Assembly: GCA_048882325.1 (NCBI GenBank)
Contig: JBHLRS010000037.1
Span: forward strand, 3,127 to 30,062
Direction: 5' to 3'
Source: Candidatus Thorarchaeota archaeon
GTDB lineage: Archaea; Asgardarchaeota; Thorarchaeia; Thorarchaeales; Thorarchaeaceae
DNA length: 26,936 nt
Shown in pieces: positions 2,716 to 16,454 of this stretch. Position 1 is the stretch's first letter; each line of letters starts with the position of its first letter. A program made the translations under genes and the position numbers. The notes beneath the pieces are model-generated. The model searched no databases. It had not been told where the DNA came from and saw only the letters and a program-made list of their open reading frames with translations.

Positions 2716-3171
2716 CTACTCCCACGTTCGTCGATGCATCAACCGTTTCAAGCTCACAAAGCCCTCAGACTCGTAGAGCGGGAGTCCTTCATCAGACGCG
2801 TGCAAGAATAGCAAGCCAATTCCATCATTCCTGCACACATTGATTACATATCTGAGCAATGCTTTACCAACACCCTTTCGTCGGTGTTCTTGTTCAACGA
2901 ACATATTGGACAAGTACGCATAGAAACCGGTCTTCTGAGAAACCTGCGGTGGAACCCTGAAGGGACTAATTCCACAACCAGCGATGACCTCACCTTCCTC
3001 TTCAACCAAGAAGTACCGATATCCATTTGTCCAGTCATCTTCAAGGTATTGTTCGGTCAATCGAGCAGTCTCATAGATATAGTCACGGTCCAGACCCATG
3101 TCAGTGAACATCCCAATTCGATGATGTAGGATCCATCTAGAATCCGCATGTGTGGCTTCTCGGAATTTCAT
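2716..3171 (-). CDS. GNAT N-acetyltransferase
   Basis: NMFVEQEHRRKGVGKALL acetyl-CoA motif, LHAS..GLPLYESEGF; ATG at 3171 preferred to 3207. Confidence 0.9.
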   Translation of the reverse strand: MKFREATHADSRWILHHRIGMFTDMGLDRDYIYETARLTEQYLEDDWTNGYRYFLVEEEGEVIAGCGISPFRVPPQVSQKTGFYAYLSNMFVEQEHRRKGVGKALLRYVINVCRNDGIGLLFLHASDEGLPLYESEGFVSLKRLMHRRTWE

Positions 3172-4152: not shown

Positions 4153-5475
4153 TTGGGCATGGAATATAGTCCTCGAAAGTCAACTATCATCCTGCTTTTG
4201 TTACTTCTACTTCCCTCTTTCTTTGTAATCTCAGATACTACTATGACCCTTGAAAGAATTCAATTATCCACACCAAGTCAGACCATAAACTGGCTCGAAG
4301 GATGGGAATACAGAAAGTCACATTCTATAACAGGCTCGGTCGGAGCAGGAATCGGTTATCAGATGCGGGTGATAGTTCATCGTTTTGCAGGACTAGACTC
4401 TGGGGAGGATGTCTACATAGGGACCAATTGTCAGTCAGACTTTGGAGACATTAGATTCACAGATGGAGATGGGACAACACTCCTCGATTACTGGCTCGAA
4501 GAAGCAACAGTAGTACGTGCGACCTTCTGGGTAGAAGTGAATGATAACCTTGACACAGATCAAACCATCTACATATACTACAGCGCATTCAGCGCAAAGA
4601 CGAGTCTTTCGAGTGGCTATAATACGTTTCCTTTGTTTGATGACTTCAACAGAGCAGACACAGACCTCGTAGGTGGAGGCTGGTTTGATGACAGTGGTGA
4701 TGGTGACAACGACATAGAGAACAACGTTCTGAAAACTGTGCAGAATGAGAATGAGTTCTGTCACATTGAAATGCCGGCTCCATCGCACTCTAACTTTGTT
4801 CTTCATGGCAAGTTACGACAGCATGCAATCGCTCCAGCCAGTTGGAAGATGGCTGTTGGTGCATACTGGGGGAGTGACAGGTGGATTAAGGTTGGATGGA
4901 GGTCGAATGACAATTTTGAGGCAAACTTGTTTTCTGATTCTAATACGGATAATGGCGCTTTGCCCTATCTAGGGCTTGATGATACTTGGTGTTACTATAA
5001 AATCGAGGTTGGTACTAATGCAATCGACTACTATTACTCCCTCGATGGAGAAATGTGGACACTGATCCATAGCGCAAATAGACTAGCAGGAGTGACAGGG
5101 AGTCCCTTATTGATTATCATTGGAAAAGGGTATGAAAATCCCAACACACTCTATCCGAATCTAGACTGGGACAACAACTATGCTACTGCAGGACCTGAGT
5201 ATACGAACTATGCTGATGATATCTTTCTGAGAAAGTTTGTTGATGTAGAACCTGTCCATGAAGACTGGGGCGCTGAAACTATTTTTGATGAAGTGACTCA
5301 ACCAACAACAGGACCTGGCACCCCAGGTGAACCTTTGGATATCGACCTTGCGATGATAACAGTGTTCGCAGCAGGAGGCGTGGCAGGGATTGCCCTTGTT
5401 CTTGGACTAGTCACCATAGCTAGAACTGGAAGAGAGGTTGTTGCTCCTTCGCAGCCATCAGGCTACGAATGGTGA
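4153..5475 (+). CDS. DUF2341-like domain surface protein, lectin-like domain, C-terminal TM, YEW tail
   Basis: Signal peptide; WLEGWEYRKSHSI...DFGDIRFTDGDGTTLLDYWLE...FWVEV...IYIYY...FPLFDDF matches the DUF2341 pattern; TM then RTGREVVAPSQPSGYEW. Confidence 0.8.
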   Translation: MGMEYSPRKSTIILLLLLLLPSFFVISDTTMTLERIQLSTPSQTINWLEGWEYRKSHSITGSVGAGIGYQMRVIVHRFAGLDSGEDVYIGTNCQSDFGDIRFTDGDGTTLLDYWLEEATVVRATFWVEVNDNLDTDQTIYIYYSAFSAKTSLSSGYNTFPLFDDFNRADTDLVGGGWFDDSGDGDNDIENNVLKTVQNENEFCHIEMPAPSHSNFVLHGKLRQHAIAPASWKMAVGAYWGSDRWIKVGWRSNDNFEANLFSDSNTDNGALPYLGLDDTWCYYKIEVGTNAIDYYYSLDGEMWTLIHSANRLAGVTGSPLLIIIGKGYENPNTLYPNLDWDNNYATAGPEYTNYADDIFLRKFVDVEPVHEDWGAETIFDEVTQPTTGPGTPGEPLDIDLAMITVFAAGGVAGIALVLGLVTIARTGREVVAPSQPSGYEW

Positions 5476-5703
5476 TATAACAAAGTCATCGAGAAATCAC
5501 TCCAAAAGGTCTTTTAGTTGGATAACGGATATCCACGTTTCAACCCCACTATTGAGTTTGAGATAGTAGAGGATGCAAGTGTATCTAATGGAAATCGCTA
5601 GACATTCGCACACGGAACTCACTCAGACTTTGCAATAGCTAACAATCGTATGACTTAAAAATAGTTAACTTTCAAGACCAGCTCGTTCAACTGAGGTGAT
5701 GTC

Positions 5704-7101
5704 TTGGCAGTCACATTAAAAGCTTCTACTAAGATATTGGAATTAGCTAATGAGTTTCCATTTCTGTTCGACACTCTTGTAGAAATTTCCCCGAAACTCA
5801 AGAAACTACAGAATCCGATTCTTCAGAAAACAATTGGACGTCGGGCGACACTGACTGATGTTTCCAAGATGTCCCGTGTACCACTAAATCGACTATTCGT
5901 ACTATTATCAGAATCGATCTCTGAAAATGCAGATGCAGAGGTTGAGATTGAAAAGGAAGATGCAGATAGTGGCGAGTGGCTGGATGAACTCGCACAAAGA
6001 CAGAGAAGATTGAAGGATCTGATTCTCGGTTTGCATCGTGGGGAAGACATGAAAGAACTTCAATCACAATTCAAGGAGATCCTGGTCGATGTGAGCGCGA
6101 CTGAGATTGCAGAGATGGAACAGTCACTCATAGATTCGGGAGAATTGACTGCCCAACAGGTTACCGCATTATGTGATTTACATGTTCTAGTCTTCAAGGA
6201 ATCACTCGATGTACAACAGACACCACAAACAACTCCTGGACATCCGATTCATACGTATATGAGTGAGAATGAAGAAGCACAGAAACTTGTCAATTTCCTG
6301 AAAGAGAATCCAAATGACCAAAATACAATTGAAGAACTCAAGAAGATTGTCCTCCATTATACACGACTTCAGAACCAACTCTTCCCACTCTTGGAGAATG
6401 CAGGAGTGACTGGTCCATCTACAGTGATGTGGGCAAAACAGGATGAGATTCGCGAAATGCTTAGCAAGGTAGATTCCTCTGACCTGAGCAAACTATTGAC
6501 TGCAATCGAGGAGTTAATCTACAAGGAAGAAAACATCCTCTTTCCGATGTCACTCGAAAACCTATCTGAATACGACTGGGTAAAGGTTCGAATTGGAGAA
6601 GAGGAGATCGGATATGCGTGGATTACACCTGGTAATGAGTGGAAACCAATATCTCCAATAGATATTCACCAAGTCGAAGAGAAGGTTGAATCACCAAAAA
6701 TCAATTTGAACACGGGAAATCTAACTCTCAAGGAGATTGATCTACTACTCAGACACCTCCCTTTAGACCTATCCTTCGTTGGACCTGACGAGAAGGTCAA
6801 ATACTACTCTGCAACTGAAGACCGCATCTTCCCTCGGAGTCCTGCAGTAATTGGTCGTGACGTAATCAACTGTCATCCAAGCAAGAGCTATGACAAAGTC
6901 AAGAAGATTCTTGACTACTTTAAAGAAGGGAAGAAAGACAAGGCGATGTTCTGGATAAATGTAGGCGACAAGTTTCTCATTATCAGTTACTATGCTGTCA
7001 GGGATGATGAGGGAGATTTTCTAGGAACACTTGAAGTAACACAGGACGCGACAGAGATCAGAAGTCTTGAGGGTGAGCATAGACTCTTAGATTGGGAATA
7101 A
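5704..7101 (+). CDS. DUF1858 + DUF438 + hemerythrin-like + PAS domain protein
   Basis: LKDLILGLHRG, EIAEMEQSL, LCDLH, GHPIHTY, KEENILFP, FPRSPAVIGRDVINCHP, GTLEVTQD; TTG start with GAGGTGA RBS. Confidence 0.85.
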   Translation: MAVTLKASTKILELANEFPFLFDTLVEISPKLKKLQNPILQKTIGRRATLTDVSKMSRVPLNRLFVLLSESISENADAEVEIEKEDADSGEWLDELAQRQRRLKDLILGLHRGEDMKELQSQFKEILVDVSATEIAEMEQSLIDSGELTAQQVTALCDLHVLVFKESLDVQQTPQTTPGHPIHTYMSENEEAQKLVNFLKENPNDQNTIEELKKIVLHYTRLQNQLFPLLENAGVTGPSTVMWAKQDEIREMLSKVDSSDLSKLLTAIEELIYKEENILFPMSLENLSEYDWVKVRIGEEEIGYAWITPGNEWKPISPIDIHQVEEKVESPKINLNTGNLTLKEIDLLLRHLPLDLSFVGPDEKVKYYSATEDRIFPRSPAVIGRDVINCHPSKSYDKVKKILDYFKEGKKDKAMFWINVGDKFLIISYYAVRDDEGDFLGTLEVTQDATEIRSLEGEHRLLDWE

Positions 7102-7108
7102 TCCAGCA

Positions 7109-7711
7109 TCACGATTCACGCCGCTGGATGAGTTCTAATAGCATGCGAATCCTCTCAATGCGCATATCATCAGGAGATTTGCTGTACTCATAGATGCCTT
7201 TGCCGCTTTTCATATCAAGGTCTCCAGCGTTGACCTTTTCTTGAAGCCATGAAGGAGGTCTGAATTTCTCATCCTCCAGAACAAAGGCTAGGTAATTGGC
7301 AGCCATAGTGATGGTATTTAATCCGATGTGGTCAATGTTGCCAAAGGGGCCAAACTGGAGAAAGATGTAGCCCAGATGTTCTTTCCATGCTCTATCGATG
7401 TCATCGAAAGTTGCGACTCCATCCTCTATCATCTTTGCAGCTACAACGAGTACCGCTGCTGCAACTGAGAGCATAGCAGCAGTGTGTATGACGGAATCCA
7501 CATTATACTCCTTAATCACATCCACAAGACCCTGAAAATCAGCCTAATCTCCTTTCACGATCGTGACCTTATTCTTCAAATCATTGACACTGTGATTGTT
7601 GGAGTAGAGGTCGAAGAGAACCACCTTAGATTCGATAGCAACTAGTTTACGAGCTAGATGGGTCCCAATAAAACCAGTGCCCCCGGTAATAAGAACTGAA
7701 CCAGCTGACAA
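7109..7711 (-). pseudogene. Fusion pseudogene: NAD-dependent epimerase N-terminus joined to 3-hydroxyacyl-CoA dehydrogenase C-terminus
   Basis: VLITGGTGFIG...KGD*ADFQGLVDVIKEYNVDSVIHTAA (in-frame TAG at 7544-7546) continues into GVATFDDIDRAW...GPFGNIDHIGL...KSGKGIYEY. Confidence 0.8.
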
Positions 7712-7767
7712 AAGACCAGCACCTTCAGAATGCGAAGTTTCCACAGGATTAAAAAATTGTCAGATTG

Positions 7768-8103
7768 TTATGAGAGGTGTCTGGTAAGAAAATCTGCTAC
7801 TTCACGCTCGAGTTCTTCACTCGATCCTGTCTTAGTGAATGATTTAAGCTTGACACCGGTGATTTGGATTCTATAGGATTGCTGTTCAATTGGTTCAATA
7901 ACAAGAACGAGATGACGAGATGGGTCCCACCAAGTCCGACTCAGATAGAAAACATAGATCCAGACTGAATCCTCATGCGTCATTTGAAAAATCGGATCCC
8001 ACATCTTCCCCATGATTCGTGTCGAGTTCCAGTTATCTTTCATATTATCAATTAGAGAATTTAGTTCCGATGCTTCAATTCCCTCTACTTCTAAAACGAT
8101 CAC
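7768..8103 (-). CDS. Hypothetical protein
   Basis: 111-aa ORF downstream of and co-oriented with leuS; no recognisable motif. Confidence 0.6.
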   Translation of the reverse strand: MIVLEVEGIEASELNSLIDNMKDNWNSTRIMGKMWDPIFQMTHEDSVWIYVFYLSRTWWDPSRHLVLVIEPIEQQSYRIQITGVKLKSFTKTGSSEELEREVADFLTRHLS

Positions 8104-8181
8104 TTTCTAAGTACTCCTGGTTCCAACCAGGTTCTTCATCCTAATCTAGATGTAAAGAGAGAAAAGCATTACCACCAGGAA

Positions 8182-10998
8182 TCACTCAATAACAATGGCA
8201 GGTTTTCCAGGCAGTGCAATAGCTGCTTTTTGATGCGAACTGGATTCCTCAGGTTGTATGCTGATATCAACCCCAAATCTCTGATTGAGAAGGACCTTTA
8301 CGTTCTGCAGGAACTCAAGTTCCTGTTTGGCGGAAGTGAATAGCAGGTCAAATTTCAAGGGGTCTTTCTCTATCTTCTTGATTAACTTCTGGACATCTTT
8401 GCCGTGTGGTCGGATGGACTCATCAGCCATAAGCTTAGGAATAATCTTGTGAGGCTGTGTATTCTCTTTGATTGCCTCAATGCTTTTTTGAACCACGGAT
8501 GTTTTCCAGTTGTCAGCAATGATAAGGTGTATCCGCTCGATTGTGTTCTCACTTGGCTCTCGAGTAATGACTTTGATTATGTTCCGTATGTCTTCTACGA
8601 CTTGGTCAAAGTAGGTCCACTGTTTTACAATATCGTCCTGTATGTAGCCCTCATCAAATTCGGGCCAACTCTCGGAAGAGATGAAATGCACACCATCTTG
8701 ATTTTGACCAATTATTTCCCACAGCTCCTCTGTGAAATGAGGTACAAATGGTGACAAAAGAAGCATGATTGTCTTCTTACATAATTCAAATATCTCTTGA
8801 TTGACTCCGATTTCCTCGTTCTCATAGTAGCTCTGTGCTGTATCAATCAGCCATATGATTCCGTTGACAGCGTCTCTGATTGCCAGCTCTTCAATTTGGT
8901 TAGTTGTTTTTCTGATTACACTATGAATGGCATACTGTATCCGCGTGTCAACGATGTGTGTTTCGGTTCTTGTCTTCTTTGGTGATGCTGTAAGTAGGTT
9001 CCAGGTCTTTTGTAAAATGCGATATGCACGTTCAACACCTTGGTCAGACCATTCCAGTTCCTTCTCGGGATTTGCCACTGATAGAATGAACATACGTGCT
9101 GTATCAGCCCCATATTTCTCAATGATGGATTCGGGACTTACTGTATTCCCTAGCGATTTTGACATCTTAGCACTTCTCATTTCATAGTGATTTCCACAGT
9201 TTTTGCACGTCTTCGTTTTGAGGTCATAACTACCAACAGGAAGGAATTGGTTACAGGTCTCACAGAACGGACTTGCCTTGTTTACCATACCCTGAGTAAG
9301 TAAATTCAGAAAAGGTTCGTTGATGTCATGGAGACCGATGTCCCTTGTGAACTTCGTCCAGAATCTCGCATACAAAAGATGGAGTATAGCATGCTCAACT
9401 CCTCCGATATACTGGTCGACAGGACCCCAGTACATGACTGGCTCTTTCCTATAGGGCAGTTCCTCTGATTGTGGGTCACAATATCTGAAGAAATACCAGG
9501 AGGAATCAACGAAAGTGTCCATTGTATCGGTCTCGCGCTTTGCAGGCCCACCACATTTAGGACACGTTGTGTTCACGAACGAGCTAGAGGTCGCAAGAGG
9601 GTTTCCGTGACCGGAGAAAGTTACATCTGTTGGGAGTCTTACAGGGAGGTCTTCAAACGGAACTGGAACAATACCACAACTCTCACAATACAGAATCGGA
9701 ATTGGTGTCCCCCAATATCTTTGCCGTGAGATCAACCAATCACGAAGTTTGTAATTGACTGTCGCGTTCCCAGCTCCCATCTTCTCAAGGTGCTTTGTGA
9801 TTTCTGTCATACCTTTCCTGCTCTCAAGACCATTGAAGGATTCAGAGTTCACCATACTACCTTCACCCTCATAAGCCTCCGAGATCATGTTTGGATGTAA
9901 CTCGGATCCTTCCGGTTGGATGACTATCTCGATTGGGATACCGAACTCTTTCGCAAATTCAAAATCACGTTGGTCATGAGCTGGTACCGCCATCACGGCA
10001 CCTGCTCCGTATTCATAAACGACAAAATTACCGATGTAGACTGGAACCGCCCTCCCATTTATCGGGTTGATTGCATATTTGTCAATGAACATACCGCGCT
10101 TCTCAGTATCAGTCGCAGTACGCTTGAAGCGGTCCTCCTCGAGGACTTCCTTGAGAAACTTCCGAAAGGGCTTCTCTGACTCAGTTCCAATTACCCACTT
10201 TTCAACAAGTGGATGTTCAGGAGCAAATACGAAGAATGTGACGCCATAAAGTGTATCGGGACGGGTCGTGAATATCGGGATGACCTCGCCAGTGTCCTTA
10301 ATCTGAAAATTGATGGTGGTCCCCTCACTTCGCCCAATCCAGTTCCTCTGCATATTTTTTACATTATCAGACCACTCAAGACCATCCATTTGCTCAAGTA
10401 GTTCATCAGCATATTCTCGAATCTTGAGATACCATTGCTGAAGGAATTTCTGTTCTACGATTGAGTTGCATCTCCAGCACTTCCCACTAACAACCTGCTC
10501 ATTTGCAAGAACCGTAGTGCATTTGGGGCACCAGTTCACGTATGACTCTTCTTTGTATGCCAGACCTTTCTCAAACATCTTCAGAAAGATCCATTGATTC
10601 CAAATATAGTAATCAACATCAATACTCTGAATCTGGCGAGACCAATCATATGATAATCCTAGACTCTTTTGCTGAATCTTAATGGCATTGATATTTTCCC
10701 ATGTCCACTTCTCAGGATGAATACCATGTGCAATGGCGGCATTCTCCGCAGGAAGGCCAAATGCATCATACCCCATTGGATAGAGAACATTGAGCCCACG
10801 CATGCGTTTGAAACGTGCAAATGCGTCTCCGATTGAATAATTGCGTAAATGCCCCATATGAATTGAGGAACTTGGGTAAGGGTACATTTCCAAACAATAG
10901 TACTTTGGCTTGTCAGGATCCTCCTTGACCTCAAAGACTCTGGAATCGTCCCACTTCTTTTGCCATTTGGTTTCGATCTTTTGTGGTTGGTACTTCAT
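8182..10998 (-). CDS. leuS: Leucine--tRNA ligase (bacterial-type core, archaeal-type C-terminal domain)
   Basis: HMGH and KMSKS class I motifs; CP1 editing motifs FTTRPDT and [13 protein letters not shown]; [15 protein letters not shown]; ends [11 protein letters not shown]. Confidence 0.98.
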
Positions 10999-11062
10999 TT
11001 CAAATCGACCTGAGGCTGCTGGAATTTAAGGCCTTCTGTAAGTTCTTTTCATTTCAGGAACT

Positions 11063-11869
11063 TCAAAATCCAAGGAGTGATTCTCTTTTAGCAACTGAAT
11101 CAAGCATACCACCGCCGTCCACATTGATGACTTCACCAACGATGTAACTAGCTGCGGATGATGACAAGAAAACAACTGTTTCTGCAATATCCTCAGGTTC
11201 TCCTACTCGCTTCAGAGGGACCTCAACTTCAATATACCGTTTGACCTTTTCCAAAGTCCAACCTGTTGCCTGCTTTGCCATCTCCTCAGGCTTCCAAGTC
11301 TTGATTAGGCCAGGAGTGATACAGTTCACATTAATCCCAAAAGGAGCCAAATCTGCAGCAAGACCCTTTGTCAATCCAATGATGCCAGCCTTGCTGGCTG
11401 GATACTGAACACCCGATGATAAACTACCGTTGACCCCAGCACCACTTGATATGTTTACAATCTTCCCAGACTTTTGTGGAATCATCTTCTTGGCCACAGC
11501 TCTTGCGAAGTTGAAATAGCCAGTCAGGTTCACAGCCATGACCTGATCCCATGTTTTTTGAGAAATTTCAGTTACTAGAGAATAACCTCCAGAGATATAG
11601 GCATTGTTCACAAGAACATCAATACGTCCGAACTTCTTGAAGACATCTTCAACCATAGCGTCCACAGCTTTGACATCAGAAACGTCTGCGGTGTAAGCAA
11701 CTGCATCGAATCCCTTGGCCTGAATTTCATTCGCGACCTTCTTGGCACCGTCGCCATTGATGTCCACAATCACTGCTGTTGCACCCCTCTTTGCAAAAGC
11801 CCAAGCTGTCGCCTCTCCAATTCCTCGTGCAGCACCTGTGATAATGACCACTTGATCTTTGAATTCCAT
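11063..11869 (-). CDS. SDR family oxidoreductase (FabG-like)
   Basis: TGAARGIG, NNA, catalytic S...YPASK; ATG at 11869 preceded by GGTGAGG. Confidence 0.93.
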   Translation of the reverse strand: MEFKDQVVIITGAARGIGEATAWAFAKRGATAVIVDINGDGAKKVANEIQAKGFDAVAYTADVSDVKAVDAMVEDVFKKFGRIDVLVNNAYISGGYSLVTEISQKTWDQVMAVNLTGYFNFARAVAKKMIPQKSGKIVNISSGAGVNGSLSSGVQYPASKAGIIGLTKGLAADLAPFGINVNCITPGLIKTWKPEEMAKQATGWTLEKVKRYIEVEVPLKRVGEPEDIAETVVFLSSSAASYIVGEVINVDGGGMLDSVAKRESLLGF

Positions 11870-11973
11870 ATTCCTCACCGTATAGTCTTAGTTCAAGAAG
11901 TAAGGTCACAATCGGCTATTAGAAAATAACGACAGGAGTAAAATCACGTTGAGGCGAAACTTCAAGATGTGGA

Positions 11974-13173
11974 TTGCGTGTCACATTCTTGTTGATAACA
12001 GTGCTGAAAGACAAGACTGTTACCTTTATTGAAGGAATGCGCAAGCAGCTGATTGACATCAGTGATGAGATACATAGAAACCCGGAACTAGCGTTCGAGG
12101 AAGTAATTGCCGCAAACCTCCTCGTAAACGAACTCAAGAAGGCTGAATTTGAGGTGGAACAGGGGGTTGCAGGGATGGAAACCGCAATTGTCGCGACTCA
12201 TCCTGAGAAATCAAAGGGCCCTACAATTGCGATCCTTGGAGAGTATGATGCGCTGCCTGAGATTGGACACGCATGCGGTCACAACCTCATCGCGACTGCC
12301 GCACTCGGAGCAGCCCTCGCTCTCGGTTCGATTAAGAAGGACCTACCCGGCAAGCTTGTCTTCATGGGCACACCTGCGGAGGAGGACATTGGCGGCAAGA
12401 TCGCTATGGTTGAGGCGGGATTGTTCAAGGATGTTGATGCTGCAATGATGTTCCACCCATCTGCAGGATATACGTTGGTGGGTCGAAGAGGTCTTGCCAT
12501 GACTGAAGTTAAGATCAAGTTTCATGGTAAATCAGCTCATGCCGCAGCCAGTCCTGAGAAGGGCATCAATGCACTTGATGCGATCATCCAGACATTCAAC
12601 GGAATCAACGCACTGCGACAACATATCAAGATGACATCAAGAATACACGGCATCATCAGTCATGGAGGAGTCAAGCCAAATATAGTGCCTGAGTTTGCTT
12701 CCGCAGAGTTCTATGTTAGAGCAGAAGAGAGTGGATACTGCAAGGAGCTAGTGAAGAAGGTCGAGAACTGTGCCAAGGGGGCAGCAAGTGCGACTGGAGC
12801 CACTTTAGAGTTCGAGGTTGTTTTACCATTTTATGAATCGAGGATCATGAACAAGGAGATGGGAGCCGCGTTTGTAAAAAACCTTGAGATTCTTGGAGAG
12901 CCAATCATTCCTCTACCACCAGGTAGCGGGGCTGGCTCGAGTGACATTGGTAATGTGAGTCAGGTTGTCCCCGCGATTCATCCCTACATTTCAATCTGTG
13001 ACAAGAGCATCGCTGGACACTCTAAGGAATTTGCAAAAGCCGCAGCGTCGAAGAAGGGACAAGAAGCAATGCTTAACGCAGGAAAGGCTTTGGCGATGAC
13101 CGCGATTGACTTATTCACAGACCCAGAATTGATGAAACGTGTGACTGAGGAGTTCAGGAACCGTGCTTCCTAA
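11974..13173 (+). CDS. M20 family metallopeptidase/amidohydrolase
   Basis: IHRNPELAFEE, EYDAL, HACGHN, GTPAEE, GKSAHAA, GSSDIGNVS; exact start uncertain. Confidence 0.93.
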   Translation: MRVTFLLITVLKDKTVTFIEGMRKQLIDISDEIHRNPELAFEEVIAANLLVNELKKAEFEVEQGVAGMETAIVATHPEKSKGPTIAILGEYDALPEIGHACGHNLIATAALGAALALGSIKKDLPGKLVFMGTPAEEDIGGKIAMVEAGLFKDVDAAMMFHPSAGYTLVGRRGLAMTEVKIKFHGKSAHAAASPEKGINALDAIIQTFNGINALRQHIKMTSRIHGIISHGGVKPNIVPEFASAEFYVRAEESGYCKELVKKVENCAKGAASATGATLEFEVVLPFYESRIMNKEMGAAFVKNLEILGEPIIPLPPGSGAGSSDIGNVSQVVPAIHPYISICDKSIAGHSKEFAKAAASKKGQEAMLNAGKALAMTAIDLFTDPELMKRVTEEFRNRAS

Positions 13174-13897
13174 TGAAGACAATCACCCAAATCACAATAG
13201 CAACGCCAGCAACCAGACCTCCAATGAAAAGAAAATTCATTGGCGGAGATGGTTGAGCCCTCTCAAGCAGTAAATCAAAAGCGAGTTCAGTGGATACAAA
13301 CCTTTCAGTAATCCCATTTGTGATGTTGAGGACGAGTAGCGACCCATCAGTTTTTGACCAAATTCGAGTATCAGTCATATTGATTTCAGGAACTCCGTAT
13401 ATGTAGCCCCATCTCTCTTCATCTTCGATGAGTGTGTAACTGTGATTGTAGGGATCCATCACATCTAGGTGAGCCAAATACAGCTCCTCATTGGCACCAG
13501 TCCAGTTTCCAACTGGCATTGCAGCACAATTTGGGAAATGTGAGCCAAGTACTAGTGGATCTTCTGAAAAATGAACATCAGACCCATTTGGAAACGTCAG
13601 AGTGTTTCTGCACGTTGATTGATAGTCAGTGGGAATCCATCCGTAGTATGCTAGCGATAGGTTCCCTAGTGATGTTATTTCCATTTGCAGGATCTCATCA
13701 AACTCATACTCTCTAGCATCATGACCCAATGAGCGGTCGCACAGCAGATATTGTGTTCTGAACTTGAGAATGTCCCCCACCTCAACAGCCCAATAGGCGC
13801 CACTTTCAAATTCCGCGGATATAGATTCCGCTGAGGTGGGAAGAATTATCAACGCCAGTGTCAGGACTATTCCAACTTTTTTCCAATTCAATTGCAT
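13154..13897 (-). CDS. Secreted, C-terminally anchored hypothetical surface protein
   Basis: Signal peptide, several sequons, C-terminal TM then RKHGS; ATG overlaps the upstream stop (TGATG), suggesting translational coupling. Confidence 0.8.
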   Translation of the reverse strand: MQLNWKKVGIVLTLALIILPTSAESISAEFESGAYWAVEVGDILKFRTQYLLCDRSLGHDAREYEFDEILQMEITSLGNLSLAYYGWIPTDYQSTCRNTLTFPNGSDVHFSEDPLVLGSHFPNCAAMPVGNWTGANEELYLAHLDVMDPYNHSYTLIEDEERWGYIYGVPEINMTDTRIWSKTDGSLLVLNITNGITERFVSTELAFDLLLERAQPSPPMNFLFIGGLVAGVAIVIWVIVFIRKHGS

Positions 13898-15519
13898 CAC
13901 CATTCATATGGTACAGAAGTGCTTCCTGGTGAGCCACCTTTCTTTGTCAGAATGATGATGATGACGATGATTATCACACCCATACCTCCACCACCCACAA
14001 ACACCATCATAAACCAGTTACCATTAGGAAGCGTGACATTTGAAGGGGTGGTTGATGAAGAACTTGAGGTATCGGTATATGTGTCCGTAGGTGAAGTTGT
14101 TGTATAAGTTGTCCCCGTACCTGTAGATGTTGTTTCACTGGTGGTGGTTGTGGTGGTGGTGGTAGTCGTAGTCGGTTCTGGTTCAGGTGTAGGAGGTTGT
14201 CCATTCCCAAGGTATACGTTGTCAATGTAAAAGTCACCTGGGTCTCCATTTGATGAGTGACAGAGTAGTCGAACATCGTAGATCTCAATCTGTGATGGGT
14301 CACTAGGTACTCCCCAGAAGGCGACATAATCAGCATAGACTGACCTATTCAGGATGTTCCAAGAGTTAGGTGTCCAGTCAAAAAGTAGGTAACGAACATA
14401 TGTGCTGTTTGAGTTGAGGTCGTTGCCTGGGAATGTGTAGCCAGACCATTCATACGCTATGTGGCTAAACTGACCTGTACCTGTGTTATGGAATAAGATG
14501 CCTATTTGAGAGACCCCTGCTTGACCACAGGTGTTTCCAACTTTGGTAGGATAGATAACCGCTGAGAGAGTGAGAGCCTCGGATAGTGTCGCATTTACAG
14601 ATAACCTCTGAGTGACAGGTTCATAGGGCGATGAGCTGTAGTGAGAATCAAGATAAAGAGAGTAACTCCCATTATAGACTGTCGACCCTACAATCTGGTT
14701 ATATTCAGTTCCGCCCTGATTGACCCACGGCGAGAATGAACCAGTTTCAAACCCTGAATTCTCGATGTAGTTATAGTCTGTTGAAACGGGCACTTCCTCT
14801 GGAGCACCAATCGTAATGTCATCAATCCAGAAATCGCCAGGATCACCATTGGATATGTGAGATAGTAAGGTGATACGATTCACCACAAGTTCAGTATTGT
14901 TTTCAGGAGTCCCATAGAATGCACAATAATCATCATACAGATTCCTTTCAACAAAGTTCCAATCATTGGGTGTCAAATCAAAGAGAAGATAGAGGACCTT
15001 TGTCACATTGACATCCATGTCACCACCCGGATATGTATAACCAGACCACTCATAGAAGACATTCCTGTGAGTGTCTGACGTACGATTATACACTCCAAAC
15101 CAAACCTGATCAGCCCCTGCTTGACCTGCGGTGTTTCCAACTTTGGTTGGGTAGACTGCAAAACTGAAGTTTTGTGCCTCAAAAAGGGGAATGTCAGTAT
15201 TGATCTCCTGATACACAGTTTCGTATGGTGCGCTACTCAAGTGGCTGTCCATGTAGAGCGCATAAGTGCCAGAATAGACTGTACTGGTCTGAATCTGGTT
15301 ATATGATGTGCCTCCGTAGTTAGTCCATGATGTGAAGTCACCGGTTTCAAACCCACCATTATCGATGAGGTTTACTGAGCCTAAAATGATACCTTGTTGG
15401 GGTTGCGTAAAAGGTCTATTTGCAAAATCTGTCACCTGATAGAGAGTGATTGGACTCATCCACATCACTGATGCGACGATCAACCCAATAATTGCTAATG
15501 GAATGTTCTTCTTCTTCAT
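13897..15519 (-). CDS. Surface glycoprotein: two CBM4/9-like (galactose-binding fold) domains, Thr-rich stalk, TM, YEW tail
   Basis: Two NxGFETG...W...IDD/IDN repeats, PEPEP-T11 linker, TM, TKKGGSPGSTSVPYEW; start MKKKN at 15519. Confidence 0.85.
   Translation of the reverse strand: MKKKNIPLAIIGLIVASVMWMSPITLYQVTDFANRPFTQPQQGIILGSVNLIDNGGFETGDFTSWTNYGGTSYNQIQTSTVYSGTYALYMDSHLSSAPYETVYQEINTDIPLFEAQNFSFAVYPTKVGNTAGQAGADQVWFGVYNRTSDTHRNVFYEWSGYTYPGGDMDVNVTKVLYLLFDLTPNDWNFVERNLYDDYCAFYGTPENNTELVVNRITLLSHISNGDPGDFWIDDITIGAPEEVPVSTDYNYIENSGFETGSFSPWVNQGGTEYNQIVGSTVYNGSYSLYLDSHYSSSPYEPVTQRLSVNATLSEALTLSAVIYPTKVGNTCGQAGVSQIGILFHNTGTGQFSHIAYEWSGYTFPGNDLNSNSTYVRYLLFDWTPNSWNILNRSVYADYVAFWGVPSDPSQIEIYDVRLLCHSSNGDPGDFYIDNVYLGNGQPPTPEPEPTTTTTTTTTTTSETTSTGTGTTYTTTSPTDTYTDTSSSSSTTPSNVTLPNGNWFMMVFVGGGGMGVIIIVIIIILTKKGGSPGSTSVPYEW
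14140..14172 (-). repeat. Poly-Thr (11 codons), ACN/ACC low-complexity tract
   Basis: GGT-rich run on the plus strand encoding the mucin-like stalk. Confidence 0.85.
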
Positions 15520-16322
15520 TTTCACGTTCTCAAACCTCACCATTGATATTCTGAAGGTGGAGCTGCAGAGGAAGATCCTTTCCTTGTCAAGAAAATGACG
15601 ATTACCACGATGATTATTACACCACCACTCCCACCTGCTATTAGAAGGGTTATGAGAGAATTAGAATCTCCGGGTGGAGTTTCTGGAGGTGGTGTCTGTG
15701 TTTCATCTGTTGTAGTGGTCGTTGTTTCGTTTGTGGTTACAGCTTCATCAGTGTAACTAATTTTGACATCATCAATCCAACAATCTCCTGGATCTCCATT
15801 GGATATGTGTGATAGCACACTGATTTGAGTGACCACCAAGTCTGAGGCGTCTGCAGGTGTTCCATAGAATGCTATGTAGTCATTGAGGAGGTCTCTCTCA
15901 ACGAGATTCCACTGATTGGGAACCAAATCAAATAGTAGATACATGACCGTTGTGACGTTGACGTTCAAATCGCCTCCAGGATACGTGTAGCCTGACCACA
16001 GATAGAGTATCAGCTTTGTAGTTTCAGCCACGGTGTCAGTTATGAATACAGTGAATTGATCCACACCAGCCCGTCCAGCTGTGTTCCCCACTTTTGTTGG
16101 GTAAACAGCTGCAGAAAAGTAGCGAGATTGATCAATCCCAACAGTTGTGCTAATTAGTTGATCTACTGGCTCGTATGGTACACTACTCACATGTGAGTCC
16201 ATATACAATGCATGACTTCCTGCGTAAACCCTGTCGCTCACAATCTCATTATAGGATGTACCACCTTCATTGACCCAAGGACTAAATTCGCCAGTTTCAA
16301 AACCAGCGTTACTGATGATATT
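14206..16322 (-). repeat. Three 567-bp domain-coding repeats (14206-14772, 14806-15372, 15756-16322)
   Basis: Colinear, ungapped 189-aa units sharing YPTKVGNT, WSGYT, YLLFD, SNGDPGD. Confidence 0.9.
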
Positions 16323-16454
16323 GGTCTCTGCTGCTGTTTCATATTGAGTTGGAGTGTCAATAACGGTTGCATAATGGCTTGATGAACACAAAAACATCAT
16401 AGAGAAGGCAATAACAGAAACTAGACTTATTGTGGCAAACTTCCCAAATGACAT
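15537..16454 (-). CDS. Surface glycoprotein paralogue: one CBM4/9-like domain, Thr/Pro stalk, TM, YQW tail
   Basis: Signal peptide, NAGFETG domain, TTTTTT/PPP linker, TM, TRKGSSSAAPPSEYQW. Confidence 0.85.
   Translation of the reverse strand: MSFGKFATISLVSVIAFSMMFLCSSSHYATVIDTPTQYETAAETNIISNAGFETGEFSPWVNEGGTSYNEIVSDRVYAGSHALYMDSHVSSVPYEPVDQLISTTVGIDQSRYFSAAVYPTKVGNTAGRAGVDQFTVFITDTVAETTKLILYLWSGYTYPGGDLNVNVTTVMYLLFDLVPNQWNLVERDLLNDYIAFYGTPADASDLVVTQISVLSHISNGDPGDCWIDDVKISYTDEAVTTNETTTTTTDETQTPPPETPPGDSNSLITLLIAGGSGGVIIIVVIVIFLTRKGSSSAAPPSEYQW

Follow-up and report, generated by a model that had tools for sequence, protein, structure and literature searches.

This study concerns a short C-terminal tail, ending in tyrosine, any residue and tryptophan (Y-x-W), on surface proteins encoded by a Candidatus Thorarchaeota archaeon. 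The window, that is, the whole stretch of DNA analysed, comprises 26,936 nucleotides (positions 3,127 to 30,062 of JBHLRS010000037.1) and is part of contig C37 of an assembly of 3.6 Mb in 89 contigs (GCA_048882325.1). Three of its genes, read by translation, encode the tail-bearing proteins P0001, P0002 and P0003 (Table 1). All three share a signal-peptide-like N-terminus, a Pro/Thr-rich stalk and a single Gly-Gly-containing hydrophobic helix followed by Lys/Arg residues. The tails consist of 16–17 residues, are rich in Gly, Ser and Pro, and end in YEW, YEW and YQW, respectively, with the stop codon following at once. The C-termini quoted in the initial annotation proved exact in all these elements. 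It had placed P0002 at 13897–15519; the end of the gene is correct, but 15519 lies inside the reading frame, which runs to 15543.

The ectodomain of P0001 matches DUF2341. The initial annotation had seen no similarity between it and the other two, and a BLASTP comparison with P0003 likewise detected none (best E = 7.7). One operon (13154–16454) contains the genes of P0003, P0002 and P0005, the last of them without the tail; in it, the 3' end of P0003 overlaps the start of P0002 by 7 nt (15537–15543) and P0002 overlaps P0005 by another 7 nt (13897–13903). A related genome, G005, keeps the orthologues of P0003 and P0002 as a tandem pair in the same order, with at least the N-terminus of P0005 conserved downstream. 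The sequencing runs listed for 13897–16454 are DNA only and come from sediment metagenomes. Three anchored proteins of the window serve as comparators. P0004, P0005 and P0006 stop 3–6 residues past the helix, at the basic cluster, in agreement with the first description of the proteins at 1861, 13154 and 24060. The Gly-Gly helix, which had been taken as a mark of the tail class, does not distinguish it: Gly-rich outer helix halves are also found in tail-less anchors of the same genus. One Gly in the transmembrane helix is invariant in alignments of the tail module that include P0001.

Table 1. Coordinates of the tail-bearing proteins, the comparators and a neighbouring gene in the window.
Feature	Position	Strand	Description	Basis
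P0004	1861..2565	+	C-terminally anchored protein without tail; comparator	
P0001	4153..5475	+	type-I surface protein, DUF2341-type ectodomain, 440 aa, C-terminus GYEW	translation, domain match, orthologues
P0001 transmembrane helix	5347..5421	+	~L399-A423, contains AAGG	translation and alignments
P0001 tail	5422..5475	+	R424-W440, 17 aa, plus stop; predicted cytoplasmic	
P0001 YEW codons and stop	5464-5472; 5473-5475	+	YEW; stop TGA	
DUF1858-DUF438-hemerythrin-PAS gene	5704..7101	+	cytoplasmic protein, directly downstream of P0001; weak lead	
P0005	13154..13903	-	third operon gene; type-I anchor without tail, ends at basic cluster; comparator	
P0002	13897..15543	-	type-I surface protein, two copies of a 189-aa lectin-like unit, 548 aa, C-terminus PYEW	
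P0002 tail	13897..13947	-	T533-W548, 16 aa, plus stop (13897-13899)	
P0002 transmembrane helix	13948-14013	-		
P0003	15537..16454	-	type-I surface protein, one lectin-like unit, 305 aa, C-terminus EYQW	
P0003 tail	15537..15587	-	T290-W305, 16 aa, plus stop (15537-15539)	
P0003 transmembrane helix	15588-15656	-		
P0006	24060..25913	-	anchored peptidase-MA-like protein without tail; comparator	

The tail is not a peculiarity of the window. A crude six-frame set of open reading frames (ORFs) was prepared from the whole assembly (4,403 ORFs), in which 6 ORFs of at least 100 aa with a C-terminus of the form Y-[EQ]-W were observed against 0.18 expected. Five of them belong to the group of 160 ORFs whose C-terminal hydrophobic helix is followed by a 10–25-residue tail, and one to the 4,243 others (Fisher p = 3.5e-7). 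The scan of the proteome proposed earlier thus yielded two further examples, the fourth and fifth tail proteins of the genome: P0007 on contig C10 (623 aa) and P0008 on contig C29 (1,127 aa), both with the C-terminus GYEW. The default end of the type-I-like proteins, of which the genome encodes well over 100, is a stalk, a helix and a short basic stub, so that the proteins with the tail form a small subclass of the type-I surface proteins. The view of the tail as a marker of a real, selected subclass is upheld. Two soluble ORFs ending in Y-x-W were rejected as further clients, one being an orphan and the other a member of a large leucine-rich-repeat family, with the end conserved in neither. 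Among the 66 ORFs ending in Trp, there was no excess of x-[DESNQ]-W ends (24) that would indicate a set of soluble clients.

Orthologues of P0001 with 48–63% identity end in YEW, YDW and YDW, and another in YRW plus eight residues. A 45-position profile of helix and tail, used for the genome searches, scored the five true cases of the source genome at 60–70 bits, matched through the last position, and helix-only proteins at no more than 32 bits. An 18-sequence profile searched against 1.84 billion protein cluster representatives gave 46 matches, of which about 38 end in Y-x-W. Relatives and the protein library together contributed about 40 further proteins with this end. In all of the 44 tails collected, the C-terminus is reached 15–19 residues from the first basic residue. 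The residue at -2 is mostly polar or acidic (D 15, E 11, S 5, Q 4, N 3, K 3, G 2, T 1, so that 38/44 carry D, E, S, Q or N), and the residue at -4 is small or Pro in 35 tails (G 20, S 9, P 6).

At the level of codons, 16 tails with DNA from 7 genomes were compared. Over 14 spacer codons, their identity is 38% in nucleotides and 20% in amino acids, the Tyr codon is TAT in 9 and TAC in 7, and the stop codon is TGA in 8, TAA in 4 and TAG in 4. Nevertheless, all 16 have Tyr(-3) and Trp(-1), and in none is Trp separated from the stop codon. The divergence of the spacers and the turnover of Tyr and stop codons rule out recent copying. Because Tyr, Trp and the position of the stop are kept while the spacer varies, the comparison points to purifying selection on the motif, its free carboxylate, the length of the spacer and the terminal position. 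The original observation that the spacers diverge while their length and the YxW end are retained is borne out, and the orthologues of P0001 keep Y-x-W. It could be argued that the tail has no function and was carried along as a relic when a shuffled anchor segment spread, and its narrow and patchy occurrence in accessory genes of one genus, with a single pool of mosaic domains, would suit such a history. A relic would decay at the same rate as its spacer, though, and here the spacers are saturated with changes, and Tyr and stop codons have turned over, while Tyr, Trp and the stop position have not moved; neutral inheritance is therefore extremely improbable.

A further feature of the module is a Cys where the helix meets the cytoplasm, immediately ahead of the basic cluster (of the I-C-R-S/N-K type), in 26 of the 44 tails (e.g., L001:5200-5287, L005, L006 and L007); of the tail-less anchors inspected, only one has such a Cys. 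Such a Cys is in a typical position for S-acylation in eukaryotes, and we know of nothing on S-acylation at such a residue in Asgard archaea.

The distribution of the tail was studied in 28 species-level genomes of the genus and 372 others sampled across the phylum, 18 candidates per genome being scored in the phylum-wide run. Full-length profile matches occur in 7/28 genomes of the genus, including the source genome, with 1–5 genes each, and all of them end in Y-x-W-stop. The profile search found the module in 0/372 of the other genomes. A match in G383, from another genus, covers only the transmembrane helix, and the protein has no residues beyond the basic cluster. The counts of genomes with the tail are lower bounds, given the limit on candidates and the frequent location of surface genes on short contigs. 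Among the sampled genomes, the tail is confined to part of one Thorarchaeota genus and is found on accessory genes. In tail-negative genomes, immunoglobulin (Ig)-like surface proteins have their C-terminus at the basic cluster, as do about 100 type-I-like proteins of the source genome, and the tail is therefore a distinct addition to an ordinary anchor. Judging by the identity of one conserved protein, the nearest relatives of the source genome are tail-negative and the tail-bearing genomes are scattered in the genus, a pattern that points to frequent loss, gene transfer among members of the genus or gaps in the assemblies. Genes of the P0007 type are invariably flanked by glycosylation genes on one side and an Alg13/Alg14-like pair on the other (G000:C10:70962-77416, here L001; L035; L096), in the order UDP-glucose dehydrogenase, GT1, tail gene, Alg13-like, Alg14-like and a conserved soluble protein of 250–300 aa without a family. 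The same glycosylation locus is present in the tail-negative G001 and G014, where the surface gene is missing.

The proteins that carry the tail differ widely outside the membrane. According to domain mapping, what stands immediately ahead of the module is a DUF2341 region, a 189-aa lectin-like unit, a stretch of Ig-like repeats (the commonest case) or a domain of about 215 aa termed WHHD; in small tail proteins, the module is preceded by a Laminin_G_3 domain or by nothing recognisable. The module is thus reused on unrelated ectodomains. The diversity that the initial annotation had asked about amounts to at least four unrelated types of last ectodomain, and its caveat that there were only two independent examples is lifted by about 44 tails behind them. 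The WHHD domain is repeated in P0007 (46-268 and 264-486) and occupies residues 376-790 of P0008. Pfam gives no match, and the predicted structure, with a mean predicted local distance difference test (pLDDT) score of 91, is a sandwich of the concanavalin-A-like lectin/carbohydrate-binding module type. Its best structural matches are the carbohydrate-binding module of a phage Dit protein, the lectin domains of calreticulin, galectins and GH16 enzymes. For the 189-aa unit, the predicted structure is unusable (pLDDT 38), and its fold rests on weak matches below the cut-off to CBM_4_9 and NTTRR-F1. Domains of different kinds are combined: P0008 has a P0001-type head and P0007-type repeats, and a protein of G010 joins the lectin unit, WHHD and Ig repeats. 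The ectodomains are therefore mosaics from one shuffling pool. In four of the five tail proteins of the genome, the ectodomain has a higher density of glycosylation sequons than the genome average; P0001 has none. On the basis of these folds and sequon densities, the tail proteins are surface proteins of the lectin type and are probably glycosylated. The signal peptide, the sequon- and Pro/Thr-rich ectodomain and the Lys/Arg residues after the helix predict that the tail is on the cytoplasmic side; every predicted feature of topology places it inside, and none supports the extracellular location that would speak against a cytoplasmic role.

In the PGF-CTERM/archaeosortase A, PEP-CTERM/exosortase and GlyGly-CTERM/rhombosortase systems, a C-terminal module is likewise common to unrelated ectodomains and contains one transmembrane helix with small residues in its outer half, then basic residues. 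However, nothing follows the basic cluster in these signals, and their signature precedes the helix, on the outer side of the membrane, whereas the signature of the tail module is at the cytoplasmic C-terminus, beyond the spacer. No NCBIfam CTERM model reached its cut-off when whole proteins and isolated C-termini were scanned; the best scores were 16.4 bits for GG_III-CTERM (cut-off 22) and 13.5 for PVV_CTERM (cut-off 27), both with the helix of P0003 only. The difference from known CTERM signals suggested at the outset is thus supported, and no description of such an archaeal tail was found in the literature. In sum, the Y-x-W tail is a genuine C-terminal motif module of lectin-type surface proteins that is under selection and undescribed.

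The favoured reading is that the free Tyr-x-Trp end docks a membrane-proximal partner and thereby tethers, clusters or positions the lectin-like surface proteins; we hold it with moderate confidence, at about an even chance. The module would combine a C-terminal anchor with a short linear motif appended to it. Outside the cell, a protein with a Sec-type signal peptide would expose its lectin-type ectodomain, followed by one transmembrane helix. A Lys/Arg cluster at the inner membrane face would lead into a disordered Gly/Ser/Pro-rich spacer of fixed length and then into the terminal sequence small-Tyr-polar-Trp, whose carboxylate is free. A groove or pocket of a cytoplasmic reader close to the membrane, or of a membrane-embedded one, may hold this carboxylate together with Tyr(-3) and Trp(-1), in a manner resembling that in which PDZ domains or the eukaryotic cytosolic iron–sulfur protein assembly (CIA) targeting complex bind C-terminal tripeptides. 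Binding by such a reader would tether, cluster or position this subclass. Docking of this type is favoured because Trp is selected as the very last residue, as domains that read a carboxylate impose.

The CIA system provides the closest defined analogue of the tripeptide itself. Its targeting complex reads [LIM]-[DES]-[WF]-COO- at the end of eukaryotic cytosolic Fe-S clients (PMC10245660), and Lto1 and viperin have a C-terminal Trp (PMC4523923). Both signals consist of three residues at the extreme C-terminus with Trp at the end, and D, E or S is found at -2 in 31 of the 44 tails. They differ at -3, which is an aliphatic L, I or M in CIA clients and an invariant Tyr in the tails. Moreover, CIA clients are soluble Fe-S proteins, and the tail proteins are membrane-anchored and lectin-like, have a signal peptide and lack Cys clusters.

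The motif could also act without any protein reader. Tyr and Trp favour membrane interfaces, so that after a short and flexible spacer they might return to the membrane as an aromatic belt, the loop fixing the tilt or depth of the helix or binding archaeal lipids. That neither gene context nor co-occurrence revealed a reader is in keeping with this idea. An interface anchor, though, has no need for Trp as the last residue, Tyr exactly at -3 and a polar or acidic residue between them, all of which are kept in 44 of about 47 tails with three different stop codons, and about 100 other anchors of the genome manage without a tail. We therefore regard interface anchoring as unlikely.

Several observations weigh against docking, among them the outcome of the search for a reader: none was found from candidate classes, the neighbourhoods of about 12 tail loci or co-occurrence. 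The functional reading in the initial annotation, in which a cytoplasmic reader would serve sorting or cytoskeleton coupling, is a hypothesis. Across the 28 genomes of the genus, neither the Sec23/24-like nor the HtrA-PDZ candidate co-varies with the tail. Beside the tail loci, no gene recurs except one for a DUF438-hemerythrin-PAS protein, at two of them. The ectodomains share one shuffling pool, so the module may have arisen only once. The cytoplasmic location of the tail is itself a prediction. Finally, 3 of about 47 tails have one to ten extra residues past Trp, so that terminality is not absolute, unless these are decaying copies, which would spare it. Separately, variant module ends were recorded in P0063, P0077, P0091, P0093, P0062 and P0012 (YQWG, YYYG, YYSG, FSFG and YRW plus 8–10 residues). 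Decay of the copies, errors of gene calling or tolerance of the variation may explain them.

Among the candidate readers, a PDZ protease deserves attention. The PDZ domain of DegS/HtrA prefers the Y-x-F-COOH ends of outer-membrane proteins, and the tail resembles this ligand in Tyr at -3, an aromatic residue at -1 (Trp in place of Phe) and a free carboxylate. The source genome encodes an HtrA/DegS-like serine protease, P0106 (G000:C5:120927-121853; L026:802-1731), with Trypsin_2 and one PDZ domain, which is the only soluble PDZ protein of the genome. It has neither a signal peptide nor a transmembrane helix, with only five open codons upstream, and is therefore predicted to be on the same side as the tail. 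From this, the tail may be seen as a tag for turnover or quality control, its free aromatic C-terminus being read by P0106 or by a membrane-bound Lon-type protease that sets lectin abundance or is activated in turn. The fixed length of the spacer would suit a reader that is kept a defined way off the membrane. DegS, in contrast, monitors unassembled porins in the bacterial periplasm. In addition, an HtrA-type gene is present in 20/28 genomes of the genus, including 16 of the 21 tail-negative ones, and neither a protein search nor a Pfam Trypsin_2 search found it in the tail-bearing G024 (99% complete), G005 and G007. On this distribution, HtrA-PDZ is rejected as an obligate reader. A constitutive degron would also bring no obvious benefit to stable surface proteins. 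A role in turnover thus has a low probability.

The tails of eukaryotic type-I proteins offer another comparison. They are known to carry C-terminal PDZ ligands, hydrophobic export signals of coat protein complex II (COPII) or, in TRAP/MIC2, a subterminal Trp, and they share with the present proteins a short cytoplasmic tail, an adhesin-like protein and a terminal aromatic determinant. TRAP/MIC2 tails differ in being acidic with a subterminal Trp, whereas the Y-x-W tails are Gly/Ser/Pro-rich with a basic start and a terminal Trp. C-terminal hydrophobic or aromatic COPII export signals are bound in eukaryotes by Sec24, and the source genome does encode a Sec23/24 homologue of 538 aa (G000:C42:609-2225, - strand; L025:609-2225). 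It contains a weak zinc finger, a vWA-type trunk and a beta-sandwich, the latter two above cut-off; helical and gelsolin domains were not detected. The protein is highly conserved, with 80–94% identity over many metagenome-assembled genomes of Thorarchaeota and 90% to the homologue from strain SMTZ1-45; for one homologue, the annotation reads SEC24 family protein. The tail might accordingly be imagined as a cargo signal whose aromatic end is bound by this protein or by another eukaryotic-signature adaptor. Its gene, however, is found in 26/28 genomes of the genus irrespective of tails, was not found in the tail-bearing G005 (80% complete) and is never adjacent to tail genes; there is also no sign of internal membrane traffic in these organisms. 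With the gene in nearly every genome, co-variation is uninformative as to whether the Sec23/24-like protein is the reader. The profiling of the tail against Sec23/24-like and PDZ classes that had been recommended therefore gave no signal. A predicted complex of the Sec23/24-like protein with the helix and tail scored 0.00, which was counted neither for nor against binding. An aromatic cargo signal of this kind is very unlikely. The broader notion of Y-x-W-COOH as an Asgard cargo or anchoring code, read by one of the eukaryote-like proteins of the archaeon (Sec23/24-like, a small-GTPase/longin module or an actin-associated factor), is likewise improbable.

The gene neighbourhoods provide one weak lead. 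DUF438-hemerythrin-PAS genes adjoin different tail genes in three genomes (5704-7101 of the window; G024:C81:15417-16601; G007:C406:4947-5969). They belong to two paralogue types, of which type A also has DUF1858, are found in differing orientations and come from a family present in 28/28 genomes. In G024 and G007, the gene occupies a variable spot inside a conserved neighbourhood. The adjacency is statistically unexpected but fits insertion hot spots. The conserved gene after Alg14 (L001:6517-7416) was dismissed as a partner: it is a core gene in 23/28 genomes and is unrelated to the ORF beside P0003. As a separate observation, four giant proteins of 2,558–6,202 aa (G000:C6:35020-65618, C16:50955-58631 and C19:7177-16683) have a common helical C-terminal segment of about 50 residues, which is unlike the Y-x-W tail.

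The LPXTG, PEP-CTERM and PGF-CTERM sorting systems were first found through C-terminal modules common to surface proteins. To our knowledge, the prokaryotic C-terminal sorting modules described so far all have their readers in the membrane or beyond its outer face. The Y-x-W tail, whose selected tripeptide is predicted to present its free carboxylate to the cytoplasm, would instead follow the logic of eukaryotic tail-based sorting and tethering, in a member of the Thorarchaeota, which are relatives of the eukaryotic ancestor. We know of almost nothing on how the surface proteins of Thorarchaeota are connected to the cell interior. The tail system is far narrower than a general sorting system (one genus, 7/28 genomes, 1–5 proteins per genome), and such a small class in part of one uncultured genus is an experimental handle rather than evidence of a general system. 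For this purpose, it is well suited: the motif is short and sharply defined, and the tail-less paralogues are natural negative controls, which makes the tail a ready bait for a putative partner. If that partner did prove to be a eukaryote-like protein, the tail would represent a prokaryotic forerunner of the tail-motif and adaptor logic by which eukaryotes sort or tether type-I proteins.

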